Assembly: GCA_964351645.1 (NCBI GenBank)
Contig: CAYGOP010000010.1
Coordinates: 1,775-25,774, forward strand
Direction: 5' to 3'
From: an uncultured Candidatus Saccharibacteria bacterium
Lineage (GTDB): Bacteria; Patescibacteriota; Minisyncoccia; Phycocordibacterales; UBA918
DNA length: 24,000 bases
The position numbers and the translations under genes are program-made. Shown here piece after piece: positions 2,045-6,055 of this stretch (positions are counted from its first letter, which is position 1; each line of letters begins with the position of its first letter). The notes beneath the pieces are model-generated. The model was not told the DNA's origin. It did no database searches and saw nothing but the letters and a program-made list of their open reading frames with translations.

Positions 2045-2123
2045 TACTTTTACTACCTCAAGAGGTATCGTAATGAGTACAACAAATGCCTAACCCTTGT
2101 CCTCTCTTTAAGTGAGGTGAGGT

Positions 2124-2258
2124 ATGGCAGGAAAACCCGTGAAAGATAGAAAGCTCCTCGTTAGGAGCGTCCTTTCACGGGTTGTCGTGGGAAACTGCGG
2201 CAGGTGGGTTCGCCCATCGCCTAGCGGGGAGCTTTCTGAAGACGCGCTAGGCCTTTAA
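2124..2258 (+). CDS. Possible 44-codon basic mini-ORF (MAGKPVKDRKLLVRSVLSRVVVGNCGRWVRPSPSGELSEDALGL) embedded in the structured element
   Basis: Below the ORF-track size cutoff. GAGGTGAGG lies immediately upstream of ATG 2124. Its TAA stop (2256-2258) overlaps ATG 2258 as TAATG. It could equally be a non-coding structured RNA. Confidence 0.3.
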   Translation: MAGKPVKDRKLLVRSVLSRVVVGNCGRWVRPSPSGELSEDALGL

Positions 2259-2271
2259 TGGCCTATTTTTT
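2248..2271 (+). terminator. Rho-independent terminator spanning the mini-ORF stop and downstream ORF start junction
   Basis: taggcc (2248-2253), loop tttaat, ggccta (2260-2265), then tttttt (2266-2271). Confidence 0.55.
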
Positions 2272-2446
2272 GTATATGAAAGACAAAGATGGACGATTTG
2301 CAACGTTTCTATTTTTAATTATTACTTCTACTTATATTGTTGCTTCAGTATATCCGTTAGAGAAGGGTAACTACATTTGGCTGGGTATTTTGTGGTTCGG
2401 GTTCGGTTTTTTATTGAGTTATATATGGAGGAAGTACTGGAATTGA
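2258..2446 (+). CDS. Small two-TM membrane protein (62 aa from ATG 2258, 56 aa from ATG 2276)
   Basis: Two hydrophobic segments, FATFLFLIITSTYIVASVY and IWLGILWFGFGFLLSYIW. It lies directly downstream of the structured element and its terminator. There is no SD before either ATG. Confidence 0.45.
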   Translation: MAYFLYMKDKDGRFATFLFLIITSTYIVASVYPLEKGNYIWLGILWFGFGFLLSYIWRKYWN

Positions 2447-2458
2447 AAGCTTGACTAC

Positions 2459-3505
2459 TTATTTTCGATAACTTGGTAACTTAATCTTGAAGATATTTTT
2501 TTCGTATTGCAAACCATCTTTATTTACACTCGCTTCTTCGGGCCTTGGCTCTATTTCGATAGAGGAATTTATCATTTGTAAGGTTCTATATACCGCAAAC
2601 ATCCCTATTCCTTCACCATTAAGTCCGCTTTTTTTTGCCTGCTCGCCGCAAAATCGTTCTTGTACTATCTTCGGTATCTCCTCGGGTTTAATTTGAAGGC
2701 TAATCATTGCTATTGAGACCGCTATACAGTCACTTTCTTTTGAAAATGATATTTCAATATCGGACTCGTTTAAAGCATATTTGGTTGCATTATCAAATAT
2801 TTGGAAGAAGGCACTCTGGAATGCGCTGTAATCTATATAAACGATACCTTCAAACTCATCAACACTTACTTTGATGCCTTTATCGTGAAAATCTTGAAAA
2901 AAGTTGTGAGCAACGTTCATCAGAGCCCTTCGTAGTTGGTGTGGCTGTTTGCTCAACTTTATTTTTTTGTTGTTTAAAAGGTTTTGAAAGAGAGCAAACT
3001 CTGTCTTAATACCAGTGTTATTCTTTATGAGATTTAGGATTTTTCTATGGATGTCCTCCATCCGGCCTTTGATAATGTTCTGTATTAACAACTTCCTTTC
3101 TTCTGGTCGGGCATTCCGTAGTTGATCTTCTGGTACTAATTCAAAAAGTTCTTGGATACTGTGTCCGTTTATAGCTTCAATATTATGAATTAGTCTGTTG
3201 ACATGGACAGTATTTCTTTCGCGTTCCTCTCTGGTAGCTCTATAAATTGAAGGTATGACAAATAGTTGAGCTTGAAGTATTTCTTTAAAATAACGAGACC
3301 TGCTTACTATTTCTTGGTCTTCAGTAAGGCCGTATACTTCTCCGTGTTCTCCACTAATTTTTCCGTGGCGGATTTTTTTACCCTTAATTACTTGGGTTTC
3401 CGTCCCAGAATCAATGCTTCCATATAACGCATCGTACTCTTGGGGAAGAGTATTGTGCACAACAGTGCCCTGCTTATCTGTAATTAAAAACCACACAATT
3501 AACAA
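2459..3505 (-). CDS. Cytoplasmic histidine-kinase-like ATPase (GHKL/HATPase_c) with a divergent H-box
   Basis: N-box-like FQIFDNATKYA and G2-like GLNGEGIGMF. Candidate phospho-His in VNRLIHNIEAIN, of the H-(D/N)-x-x-N AgrC/GHKL-like type. No TM segment. The only start options are TTG 3505 or GTG 3496, and both overlap or abut the upstream TAA (3499-3501), which suggests translational coupling. Confidence 0.7.
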   Translation of the reverse strand: MLIVWFLITDKQGTVVHNTLPQEYDALYGSIDSGTETQVIKGKKIRHGKISGEHGEVYGLTEDQEIVSRSRYFKEILQAQLFVIPSIYRATREERERNTVHVNRLIHNIEAINGHSIQELFELVPEDQLRNARPEERKLLIQNIIKGRMEDIHRKILNLIKNNTGIKTEFALFQNLLNNKKIKLSKQPHQLRRALMNVAHNFFQDFHDKGIKVSVDEFEGIVYIDYSAFQSAFFQIFDNATKYALNESDIEISFSKESDCIAVSIAMISLQIKPEEIPKIVQERFCGEQAKKSGLNGEGIGMFAVYRTLQMINSSIEIEPRPEEASVNKDGLQYEKNIFKIKLPSYRK

Positions 3506-4107
3506 TAAATTTCTGCGCTATATATTTCGACCAAGTTCTCAAACTCGTATGGGTCTGCATTTTTAGGTAGTTTCGCATGGGCATTTTCCCAAATAGGGTC
3601 AAATACATCCCTTTTAGTTTGCGAAGAATAAACAACTACTTTTTTATTAGGATGCCTTTCTCTTATTGCGGCAACTAGACCCAGTCCTTGGTCTTTAGGA
3701 AACAAATTCTTCGCCACTCCGTTAATATCAATGAAGCATATGTCCGCATCAATAATATTTTGGTCGTCTATACCAGATACACGGCTAATTATTTTAGTGT
3801 TTTTCCACCCACTTTTTTTAAGGATGTTAACAACTTTAAAGTCCGTTTTGTCATCAATAAAAAGGATTTTTGTTAGACGCTTTCTCTCTTCAGGGGTGTG
3901 AGCGCAAACACTTGGCTGGGAGGCAGCATGAAGGGTTTGGATAGGAGTGAGTGGCTGTTTAATTAAGTTTAGTATTCCTTTGAATATGTACTTAAACATT
4001 CCAGTAAATTTTTCAAGAATAAACAATAGTAACGGAATTCCTATTCCACCAAATACCCATTCTTTGTTCAATTTTATCCATGCCCACGCAGCTGATATTT
4101 CATCCAT
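3499..4107 (-). CDS. Membrane-anchored protein with a C-terminal CheY-like receiver (REC) domain
   Basis: N-terminal TM segment WVFGGIGIPLLLFILEKF. REC-like strands KILFIDDK, ADICFIDING (putative acceptor Asp) and KKVVVYSSQT, then AKLPK. The ORF track starts at TTG 4143; I prefer the first ATG at 4107 (MDEISAAW...). Confidence 0.65.
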   Translation of the reverse strand: MDEISAAWAWIKLNKEWVFGGIGIPLLLFILEKFTGMFKYIFKGILNLIKQPLTPIQTLHAASQPSVCAHTPEERKRLTKILFIDDKTDFKVVNILKKSGWKNTKIISRVSGIDDQNIIDADICFIDINGVAKNLFPKDQGLGLVAAIRERHPNKKVVVYSSQTKRDVFDPIWENAHAKLPKNADPYEFENLVEIYSAEIYC

Positions 4108-4110
4108 ATA

Positions 4111-4199
4111 TTGAATGCTACTTGAATGCTTGTTGTGTGACAAGGTGCCAAGTTTCCCTTGCTGTTTTATAGTATTGTAGTTAGATAGTTCAATACTAT
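4111..4199. promoter_or_regulatory. Divergent control region between the REC gene and the recombinase gene, carrying a tandem repeat and an inverted repeat
   Basis: TTGAATGCT occurs twice, at 4111-4119 and 4122-4130, with an 11-bp period. A 9-bp inverted repeat pairs atagtattg (4169-4177) with caatactat (4191-4199). Confidence 0.35.
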
Positions 4200-4213: not shown

Positions 4214-5992
4214 ATGAATGTAAAAATCGAGAACCAAAAACGTGTCGCTATTTACCTTCGAGTCTCTACTGATGAACAAGTAGAGCGTCATGGCCGTGAC
4301 CTACAAGAAGCTGCCGTGCGAGCGATGATACAGTCAAAAGCAGGGTCTGATGAACCTTTTGTTTTTGCTGGAGATGAACATATTTATTTTGATGATGGTG
4401 TTAGCGGTACGATTGAGCTAGGTGAGCGTCCAGCATTTGCACGTTTAATGGAGGCTGTGACGCTAGCTCCGAAAGGGAGTAAACCTTTTGATGCGGTAGC
4501 GGTATATAAAATTGATCGCTTTGCTAGAAAACTGACTATATTGCTCGACGCAATATCATTCTTTAAAGAGTACGACATAGAGTTCATTTCAGTGAACGAA
4601 AGTATAGACACCTCCACTGCATTTGGGAGGGCTATGCTAGGTATCATAGGTGTGATAGCGGAGTTGGAACGCGACACCATCTTCGATCGTACCCAAGCAG
4701 GAAGGATACAAGCTCTTCAAAAAGGTGTGCATATGGGTAATGCATCAAAATATGGCTATATTAAAGACTCGAGTAAACGTCTCGTAATTCTTGAAGAAGA
4801 AGCCGATACAGTCCGGATGATGTTCCAAATGTTAACCAGCAATAAGATGTCTGTTTACAACATAGCCGATTTCTTAAAAGAGAATGAGCATTTAACTCCT
4901 GATGCTTCGTCAATTAAGCATCAGAAAAGAAAAGGCATAGCTAAAAATAAAAAGTCCCTTTATAACTGGCACCCAGAAGCAATTCGTAGGATGCTGCAGG
5001 ATGAAATTTACGTTGGGCGAGCATACTACAACAAGACCAAGAATGGTAAGAAGGTTCCAAAAGAAGACTGGTTTGTTCAACATGTACCACAGATAATAGA
5101 TACTATTACTTTTGACCGAGCACAAAAGATATTAAGTGAAAATAAGCATCAAAAGAAAGAGACTCCGAGCAAGCACACCTATTTGTTGAGTGGCCTACTC
5201 CGATGCGAAGCCTGCCGTGATGGAGCAAATGCAAAGCATTACATTGGGACTCCTCAAACAGTAAAGAGCACTGGTAAAAAAGTGTATTACTACAACTGCA
5301 AAGGGAAGTCTCATCTTTACAAGGAAGACCCTTGCTTAACAACCCCGCTCCCAGCTGATGCGATTGAAGATTATGTAGTAAATATCTGTAAACAGATACT
5401 GGAAAATCCAATTGATACCTTTGAGTACCAACAGAAACTCAAGTCTACACGGGTAGAAATAAAGCATTTACAAAAGGAGGAGGACCGAGTCCTAAAGCTT
5501 GTTGAAGGTATACCCGCACGGAAGGACTTACTGCGGGAGCAGCACGAGGCAGCAATTATTGATACTCCTACTATTAAGGCTAAATTTGCTGAACTAGATG
5601 AAAAAGAAAAGTCTCATAAAGAGCAACTAACGCAAATACAGTCGCGTCTATCCCAAAACACTTTGAATGAGGGTTATATTGAAACTTTTAAGTTGTTCAA
5701 TGAAAATTATAAAGAGATGCTTAAGCAGGTAAGTAAGAACCGGTTAGATATTTATGACATCATCCATACGATGATTGATGAAATTACAGTCTACTCACGG
5801 CCGGTAGAGGAGGGTGATAGTGTGGCTGGTCGGAAGAAAAAGGGGCAACAGGTCCCGTATCGTATCCATATTAAGTTCAAGCTCCCGCAAGAGATGTTGA
5901 ATGCCTTTGGTAAGCAGGAGGTAGTAATAACAGAAAATGCACCCGAGGTGGGTGCAAGTTCTAGTCAAAAAGACATTGGTGGTGCGCGATGA
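4214..5992 (+). CDS. Large serine recombinase (resolvase/invertase N-terminal domain, recombinase domain, Zn-ribbon and coiled coil)
   Basis: VAIYLRVSTDEQ contains the catalytic Ser motif. YKIDRFARK is present. A Cys cluster LLRCEACRDG...YYYNCKGK forms the Zn-ribbon. A long charged helical region spans QKLKSTRVEIKHLQKEEDRVLKL. The ORF is 592 aa. Confidence 0.9.
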   Translation: MNVKIENQKRVAIYLRVSTDEQVERHGRDLQEAAVRAMIQSKAGSDEPFVFAGDEHIYFDDGVSGTIELGERPAFARLMEAVTLAPKGSKPFDAVAVYKIDRFARKLTILLDAISFFKEYDIEFISVNESIDTSTAFGRAMLGIIGVIAELERDTIFDRTQAGRIQALQKGVHMGNASKYGYIKDSSKRLVILEEEADTVRMMFQMLTSNKMSVYNIADFLKENEHLTPDASSIKHQKRKGIAKNKKSLYNWHPEAIRRMLQDEIYVGRAYYNKTKNGKKVPKEDWFVQHVPQIIDTITFDRAQKILSENKHQKKETPSKHTYLLSGLLRCEACRDGANAKHYIGTPQTVKSTGKKVYYYNCKGKSHLYKEDPCLTTPLPADAIEDYVVNICKQILENPIDTFEYQQKLKSTRVEIKHLQKEEDRVLKLVEGIPARKDLLREQHEAAIIDTPTIKAKFAELDEKEKSHKEQLTQIQSRLSQNTLNEGYIETFKLFNENYKEMLKQVSKNRLDIYDIIHTMIDEITVYSRPVEEGDSVAGRKKKGQQVPYRIHIKFKLPQEMLNAFGKQEVVITENAPEVGASSSQKDIGGAR

Positions 5993-6055
5993 GAGACTTG
6001 AACTCCCGACCTTCTCGGTGTAAACGAGCTGCTCTACCAACTGAGCTAATCGCGC
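5980..6055 (-). tRNA. tRNA-Val (anticodon UAC), CCA encoded
   Basis: The reverse complement reads GCGCGAT-TA-GCTC-AGTTGGTA-GAGC-A-GCTCG-TTTACAC-CGAGA-AGGTC-GGGAG-TTCAAGT-CTCTC-ATCGCGC-A-CCA. This hand-folded cloverleaf has a 7-bp acceptor stem and a GTTCAAGT T-loop. Confidence 0.9.

Follow-up and report, generated by a model that had tools for sequence, protein, structure and literature searches.

The window analysed here, a stretch of 24,000 nucleotides from an uncultured Candidatus Saccharibacteria bacterium (contig CAYGOP010000010.1), carries a GC-rich structured element directly upstream of a small membrane-protein gene. This element is an additional copy of LOOT, an already catalogued RNA family. 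In a cmscan search against Rfam, positions 2087-2218 of the + strand matched LOOT (RF03000) with 76.9 bits as compared to a gathering score of 46.4 (E-value 3.7e-13), and the match spans the entire model (positions 1-121 of 121). We propose, with a probability of roughly 60%, that LOOT in the window is a cis-acting leader with a conditional terminator. Comparison with homologs reveals a conserved pairing, helix B, which is not covered by the Rfam LOOT model. Together with the predicted folds, this helix suggests a leader that may switch between two states. A preliminary description of this DNA, made from its letters alone, had considered an attenuator-like leader gating a small membrane protein, and on the modelling presented below this is probably the best-supported reading.

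LOOT stems from the Weinberg/Breaker comparative-genomics collection and was presented as a metagenome-based RNA in Rfam 14 (PMC7779021). Its Rfam entry is of the type 'Gene; sRNA' (small RNA) and assigns no function; we found no open paper on the function of LOOT. For years the family has been catalogued as an 'sRNA' without function or host biology. LOOT is not a validated riboswitch, and the Rfam scan returned no match of the window to any riboswitch family. The preliminary description could place the element in no class it knew, a point now superseded by the Rfam assignment. In the window, a LOOT copy can be read in its context, next to a candidate defence system on a serine-recombinase island integrated at a tRNA gene, and the comparison of homologs gives a two-state model that can be tested at the bench. 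If the model is true, LOOT would be among the first regulatory RNA mechanisms for mobile elements of the almost entirely uncultured Candidate Phyla Radiation (CPR)/Patescibacteria, and an orphan switch whose signal is worth seeking.

The LOOT core and its homologs

The leader and the gene behind it comprise the following features, including one open reading frame (ORF) that we regard as spurious.

2069-2074, + strand: candidate -10 box CGTAAT, a weak match (4/6), at the position equivalent to the peak in homologs
2079-2086, + strand: conserved 5' motif ACAACAAA, family form ACAAYTKAAT (homolog comparison)
2087-2218, + strand: LOOT core, helices P1-P5 (cmscan)
2087-2129, + strand: P1 (2087-2090 with 2126-2129) and P2 (2095-2101 with 2116-2122) (Rfam alignment)
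2124-2258, + strand: 44-codon ORF, a spurious by-product of the structured RNA (ORF scan)
2136-2181, + strand: P3, with basal helix (2136-2145 with 2172-2181) and apical hairpin A (2153-2158 with 2163-2168)
2183-2202, + strand: P4 hairpin with an invariant GAAA tetraloop at 2191-2194 (covariation and loop counts)
2203-2218, + strand: P5 hairpin, with a UUCG loop in the window and a G2204-U2217 wobble (Rfam alignment)
2220-2237, + strand: conserved 3' tail, the 3' strand of helix B (partner 2148-2165, 18 bp), beyond the Rfam model
2245-2252, + strand: 3' arm of helix C (partner 2219-2226), a pairing visible in the sequence
2248-2271, + strand: intrinsic terminator, stem 2248-2253 with 2260-2265, followed by T6 at 2266-2271 (terminator scan)
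2276-2446, + strand: downstream gene, encoding a protein of 56 amino acids (aa) with two predicted transmembrane (TM) segments (homolog alignment)

GC content is 0.505 at 2101-2300 as compared to 0.31-0.37 in the flanks, and the fold of the 201-nt stretch has a z-score of -4.87, none of 200 shuffles being equally stable. Composition and fold agree with the earlier proposal of a GC-rich structured RNA in an AT-rich island, and the elements listed there lie where it had put them. Its 12-bp helix (2134-2145 with 2172-2183), also returned by our inverted-repeat search (I5), is P3 of LOOT; its apical hairpin gctcct-cgtt-aggagc (2153-2168), with a fold energy of -9.1 kcal/mol, is hairpin A; and its UUCG hairpin with a G-U pair is P5. 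The start it gave, 2100, has to be moved 13 nt upstream, since P1/P2 begin at 2087, and P4 (2183-2202) had been overlooked. The conserved CCUAA, (G)CAUGG, A-rich linker (AAAA) and GAAA loop were all found in the window along with P1-P5. From most LOOT members the window differs by a degenerate U-tract, an extra separate terminator and the UUCG loop of P5, which is a GNRA loop in most homologs.

Homologs were collected with a search pattern covering the 5' domain only. This yielded 119 loci from the genome collection, 107 of which also match the LOOT sequence profile. Positions of the 5' domain that were set by the pattern are invariant by construction, whereas P3 and everything after it was free to vary. 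A first pattern (GCCTAA..ATGGC..AAAACC) was too loose: of the 119 viral contigs it returned, none was LOOT-like by the hairpin filter. The tighter pattern left a single true viral match, a contig (L120) with LOOT at 93.8 bits beside a terminase gene. The hosts of LOOT are overwhelmingly Patescibacteria/CPR metagenome-assembled genomes. Locus L244 is a close relative of the window (LOOT at 72.4 bits) and is syntenic with it; a metagenome scan for the window's own LOOT subtype gave no further close relatives.

Covariation was counted on an 86-sequence alignment. With helix B included, 88.9% of cells in the structure are paired; sliding the partners by 1-3 columns leaves at most 45.6%. None of 500 shuffles reached the covariation score of the structure, 0.522 (at most 0.13 for slid partners). 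The basal helix of P3 is 92.8% paired with abundant double changes, and in P4 all eight pairs covary with 99.1% of cells paired, its loop being GAAA in 83 of the 86 homologs. Hairpin A, which helix B (see below) would displace, is weaker, yet it occurs in 92% of the homologs in several sequence guises (mean z -2.0). Window and L244 differ by compensatory changes in one P3 pair (U-A to A-U), three P4 pairs and one P5 pair (G-C to A-U). The covariation on which the preliminary description had made its idea depend is present both across the 86 homologs and, as double changes in P3, P4 and P5, between the two closest copies.

Helix B, helix C and the terminator

All homologs extend past the Rfam model with a tail of the consensus CGCUGGCGGGGAGCUUUUUGU, whose complement is found in the apical P3 hairpin, over its 5' arm and loop. 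The resulting helix B comprises 17 aligned pairs in the alignment; both sides change in 15 of them, and the fraction of paired cells is 90.8%. RNAalifold selects helix B from the alignment without any structure input, and in the window it is part of the minimum-energy fold and was recovered as an inverted repeat (I6). G-U pairs are frequent in B (e.g. UG in 78 of 86 sequences at columns 81/169), which indicates an RNA transcribed from the + strand. A shorter version of this alternative pairing, 2148-2157 with 2228-2237, had been spotted at the outset; it was confirmed and is part of a longer, 18-bp pairing, 2148-2165 with 2220-2237. The Rfam model of LOOT ends at P5; the window and about 100 homologs add the upstream motif, the tail with helix B, a U-tract or terminator and an adjacent ORF.

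At least six U within 9 nt follow helix B in 78 of the 86 homologs. The poorest U-tracts are those of the window (UUUCUGAAG) and of locus L186, and only these two loci carry an extra canonical terminator; in both, the 5' arm of this terminator shares sequence with the 3' arm of helix C. Formation of helix C would occupy the tail needed for B as well as 2248-2252, which the terminator needs. Both the 8-bp helix (2219-2226 with 2245-2252) and the terminator 2248-2265 with its T6, already described as mutually exclusive, were recovered here, and the stems of both are unchanged in L244. A tail hairpin resembling helix C, with at least 6 bp and at a constant position, is found in approximately 37 of 86 homologs. 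The minimum-energy fold of the window also pairs ACAAA of the 5' motif (2082-2086) with UUUGU of the U-tract (2269-2273); the U-tract of the family keeps a conserved G.

The basal P3 helix and helix B cross, and the linker of 2-4 nt is judged too short for a 17-bp helix, so that P3 and the full B helix are read as alternatives which would exclude each other sterically. Their predicted energies are balanced: for transcripts ending at the U-tract, the energy with P3 forced minus that with B forced has a median of 0.0 kcal/mol (interquartile range -3.1 to +3.1), at total energies near -60 to -70 kcal/mol. When the transcript is 50 nt longer, the median shifts to -5.0 kcal/mol in favour of the P3 state, partly owing to helix C. 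For the window, the prediction alternates between the two folds as the transcript lengthens.

Transcript ending at 2219: P3 fold, predicted -62.1 kcal/mol
Transcript ending at 2238: B, predicted -68.1 kcal/mol
Transcript ending at 2253: P3 plus C, predicted -79.0 kcal/mol
Transcript ending at 2266: B plus terminator, predicted -81.5 kcal/mol

The core itself may contain a clamp that acts on this balance. The internal loop between P1 and P2, CCUAAC (2089-2094)/UAUGG (2123-2127), matches 10 of the 11 positions of the canonical GAAA-tetraloop receptor, CCUAAG/UAUGG (bioRxiv 10.1101/2024.03.11.584472). As in the 11-nt receptor of group I/II introns and RNase P, the motif is an internal loop between two helices and is accompanied by a GAAA loop, here that of P4. 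It differs in the closing pair, which is G-U in the 11-nt receptor, C.U in the window and A.C in most homologs. These two receptor positions had been left free by the search pattern; they read A.C in 58 homologs, C.U in 21, C.C in 6 and the canonical G.U in 1 of 86, and covary, never as Watson-Crick pairs. The GAAA loop of P4 may dock in this receptor-like motif and stabilise the P3 state, in which case the balance would respond to Mg2+ or to binders of the folded core.

The position of LOOT relative to genes and promoters fits a leader. A co-directional ORF of at least 40 aa starts between -15 and +200 nt after helix B in 67 of 81 loci, mostly at +20 to +50, and in most of the other loci an ORF was seen in a simpler scan. 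In the window, T6 and the ATG at 2276 are 4 nt apart, too close for a second promoter in between. Upstream, -10-like hexamers occur in 56 of 85 loci, with their peak 16-20 nt ahead of P1; by its equivalent position, CGTAAT at 2069-2074 is a candidate -10 box for the leader's own promoter. The motif ACAAYTKAAT ends at most 14 nt from P1 in 37 of the 85 loci as compared to two occurrences elsewhere in the interval -120 to -15. It is identical in L244 and, judged by this placement, probably marks the first transcribed bases. ORF spacing, the upstream -10-like boxes and the U-tract favour a cis-acting leader over an sRNA acting in trans. Before the LOOT promoter region lies a terminator-like hairpin (GAGGTACTTATAAAGTGCCTT followed by a T-run, 2017-2043), which probably ends the gene at 1297-1839 and so would insulate the LOOT unit.

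A full HMMER search of 1.84 billion representative proteins returned one true relative of the downstream protein, P0002 of locus L244 (56 aa, 70% identity). It aligns from query residue 7, which identifies ATG 2276, not ATG 2258, as the true start; the annotated start of the membrane-protein gene should be shifted accordingly. Between the window and L244 this ORF has 13, 9 and 35 differences at codon positions 1, 2 and 3 with 19 synonymous codon changes, and only here are substitutions codon-periodic, the pattern by which the preliminary description had proposed to recognise a plain protein-coding gene. The 56-aa protein has no match in Pfam or PADLOC, and a word-index search returned only the protein itself. 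In L244 an extra ORF (76 aa, two TM segments, 2345-2575) lies between LOOT and the 56-aa ORF, so that two near-identical leaders are directly followed by different cargo.

From these observations we derive the following model, in which approximately 2079-2271 would be the 5' leader of a one-gene unit (the 56-aa membrane protein, 2276-2446) in the tRNA-Val island. In the first state, RNA started from the unit's own promoter would fold into P1-P5, the structure given by Rfam, with the presumed docking of the P4 loop clamping the fold. In the second state, the 3' tail would pair into the apical half of P3, giving the 18-bp helix B. The U-tract of most family members follows B directly, so that B itself would be the terminator stem. 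In the window, where the U-tract is degenerate, B would act one step earlier: once B is formed, 2245-2252 would be free, the terminator 2248-2271 could form, and transcription would end 4 nt short of the gene. If the RNA stays in the P3 fold instead, the tail would pair with 2245-2252 as helix C, the terminator would not form and the gene would be transcribed. Termination is presumed to depend on conditions in vivo, and candidate triggers that might shift the balance are temperature, Mg2+, a ligand or a protein.

Alternative readings and known systems

The main rival holds that LOOT is a free-standing sRNA acting in trans. Helix B with the U-tract, or the 2248-2271 hairpin in the window, would then be a constitutive terminator, and the gene would be expressed on its own or by leak-through. 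We regard this as unlikely but as an alternative to be taken seriously, given the -10-like promoter and terminator-like 3' end that LOOT has of its own, the Rfam type 'Gene; sRNA' and downstream genes that share no function. In other bacteria, terminated riboswitch leaders are known to act in trans. A free-standing sRNA does not account for the co-orientation and tight spacing (+20 to +50 nt) of the ORF in at least 83% of loci, with no room for a promoter, nor for a gap of only 4 nt in the window. Helix C lies downstream of the U-tract and would never be transcribed in a terminated sRNA, and the predicted energies of the two folds are equal at the U-tract. An RNA that modifies RNA polymerase to ignore terminators, as do the put RNA of phage HK022 and the EAR element of Bacillus, would secure expression of island cargo; it would fit the compact conserved fold of LOOT and its place between a promoter directly upstream and cargo genes downstream, on mobile elements and one phage fragment. 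This is improbable, since the tail-P3 pairing, the energy balance and the built-in terminator would remain unexplained and Rfam holds no similarity of LOOT to the put or EAR families. Even less probable is a type I toxin-antitoxin system with the hydrophobic two-TM peptide as toxin and the structured RNA as antitoxin or translational lock. Like such systems and holin-like peptides, the window has a small two-TM peptide gene beside a structured RNA on a mobile element, and in about 12-18 other loci the P3 3' arm has its exact complement in the region of the downstream translation start. The type I toxin considered in the preliminary description nevertheless finds no echo in the window itself, where pairing of the P3 3' arm with the start region is at background (-5.0 as compared to -6.2 kcal/mol for unrelated pairs). 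The RNA is encoded upstream on the same strand and has no antisense overlap with the peptide gene. Moreover, among the many unrelated gene types behind LOOT, methyltransferases, nucleases and large proteins are as frequent as small peptides, and where the match is exact the loci carry restriction-modification genes instead of peptides.

Least credible of all is that the element is plain coding DNA, i.e. a 44-codon Arg/Lys-rich ORF translationally coupled to a 62-aa ORF. Such an ORF does exist mechanically, a purine-rich run lies upstream of it, and its stop overlaps the next ATG as TAATG; the preliminary description had drawn on all three. As a gene it does not stand. Read from the same ATG in the 86 homologs, the ORF has a median of 14 codons; it has only 2 codons in 15 and fewer than 40 in 60 homologs, and 26 reach 40. 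It has no Pfam match. Its ATG (2124-2126) is the family-invariant AUGG, part of the receptor-like motif described above, and GAGGTGAGG (2114-2122), taken for a Shine-Dalgarno site, contains the 3' strand of P2 (2116-2122); both are structural nucleotides of P1 and P2. TAATG reads TATTG in L244, which removes the stop codon as well as the ATG overlapping it, and with them the proposed coupling. The 62-aa start fails likewise, as the only homolog aligns from residue 7. Substitutions in the helices are compensatory, not codon-periodic. In annotation, neither the 44-codon ORF nor a 76-aa call made for the equivalent region of one relative should be called a gene.

Several points weigh against the proposed leader. 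In Rfam, LOOT is listed as an sRNA. Instead of alternating, P3 and B might be present together in a pseudoknot, and B, which encloses P4 and P5, would span an unusual distance for a terminator stem. Only about 43% of homologs show helix C clearly, and in a shuffle test of low power 14 of 86 were at p<=0.05; the case for helix C is therefore based mainly on the constancy of its position and on the folding path of the window. The energy comparison leaves out tertiary contacts and folding kinetics. Hairpin A is poorly aligned by position in the MAFFT alignment (55-68% paired), and homologs often come from related lineages, so the covariation counts do not represent independent events. Finally, the downstream genes are extremely diverse, with 92 of 136 neighbouring proteins being singletons, which argues against a metabolite riboswitch tied to a single pathway.

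Among known systems, LOOT most invites comparison with terminating riboswitches. The c-di-GMP-I riboswitch terminates transcription and also uses a tetraloop-receptor clamp. LOOT likewise has a structured domain upstream of a gene, followed by terminator and antiterminator pairings which exclude each other in silico just before the ORF, and a tertiary motif of the tetraloop-receptor type in its fold. It differs from terminating riboswitches in that the 5' strand of its terminator is located inside the structured domain, about 55-70 nt away, and in that the genes downstream of it share no pathway. A wider proposal, which we make tentatively and with more doubt than confidence, is that LOOT constitutes an unrecognised cis-acting switch class of CPR serine-recombinase islands and phages. 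It would gate defence, restriction-modification and membrane cargo by a tetraloop-receptor-stabilised antiterminator competing with a long-range terminator helix, and in some loci the variable P3 arm would also be matched to the translation start of its own cargo.

Island context and other LOOT loci

The gene behind the leader is followed by a candidate defence pair, a recombinase and a tRNA gene.

2459-4143, - strand: candidate defence pair PDC-M43B (2459-3505) and PDC-M43A (3499-4143) (PADLOC)
4214-5992, + strand: large serine recombinase, a 592-aa ORF (Pfam Resolvase, Recombinase, Zn_ribbon_recom)
5980-6055, - strand: tRNA-Val(tac) (tRNA call), its 3' end overlapped over 13 nt by the 3' end of the recombinase gene

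The PADLOC E-values are 2.4e-93 for PDC-M43B and 5.9e-56 for PDC-M43A, and Pfam detects HATPase_c. The pair consists of a HATPase_c protein and a receiver-like protein; L244 has an FtsK_gamma gene in the same position. The overlap of recombinase and tRNA-Val is one island boundary. The left boundary was not found, as no repeat of the tRNA-Val 3' end marks it. The contig copy L240 reaches about 1.8 kb further left and has Zeta_toxin/AAA_33 genes.

Large serine recombinases are found in 47 of 112 LOOT loci as compared to 0 of 12 chance-match loci. Their genes lie upstream and divergent in 33 loci, upstream and co-directional in 7, and downstream and co-directional, as in the window, in 7; 25 of the 47 end at most 900 nt from a convergent tRNA gene. 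LOOT units are cargo units of tRNA-integrating islands. According to Pfam, the genes downstream of LOOT encode DNA methyltransferases, several nuclease families, HsdR N-terminal domains and ankyrin repeats. Most downstream proteins have no Pfam match, and many are small membrane proteins.

In about 12-18 loci, an exact 15-17-nt copy of 'UAAAACC + P3 5' arm' is located 2-5 nt before the downstream start codon (L131, L135, L136, L139, L145, L155, L157, L162, L181 and L182, and further L184, L189, L202, L218, L220 and L229). The arm sequence varies by locus and always matches its own copy; the window has no such copy. Where Pfam names the downstream gene in these loci, it is mostly of the restriction-modification or nuclease type. 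The P3 3' arm could mask the start site here, with predicted pairing energies of -13 to -24 kcal/mol as compared to about -5 kcal/mol for unrelated pairs. We rejected a general anti-start-site role of the P3 3' arm, as outside approximately 10-18 loci the values for own and unrelated pairs are -4.7 and -4.8 kcal/mol.

Some loci (L124, L169, L178 and several from 'uncultured Gammaproteobacteria') bear the labels Bathyarchaeia or Gammaproteobacteria, yet are closely CPR-like. The LOOT flanks are nearly identical among L124 (Bathyarchaeota), L129 (Microgenomatus) and L168 (Woesebacteria). The sequences of the loci so labelled suggest mis-binning, mislabelling or recent transfer.

The number of LOOT copies per locus is nearly always one. 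Integron-like arrays of LOOT were considered and rejected on these grounds, L236 being the sole exception with two copies. These two are located at 1612-1770 and 1988-2132, 376 nt apart on the same strand, and belong to different subtypes; a short ORF follows each of them.

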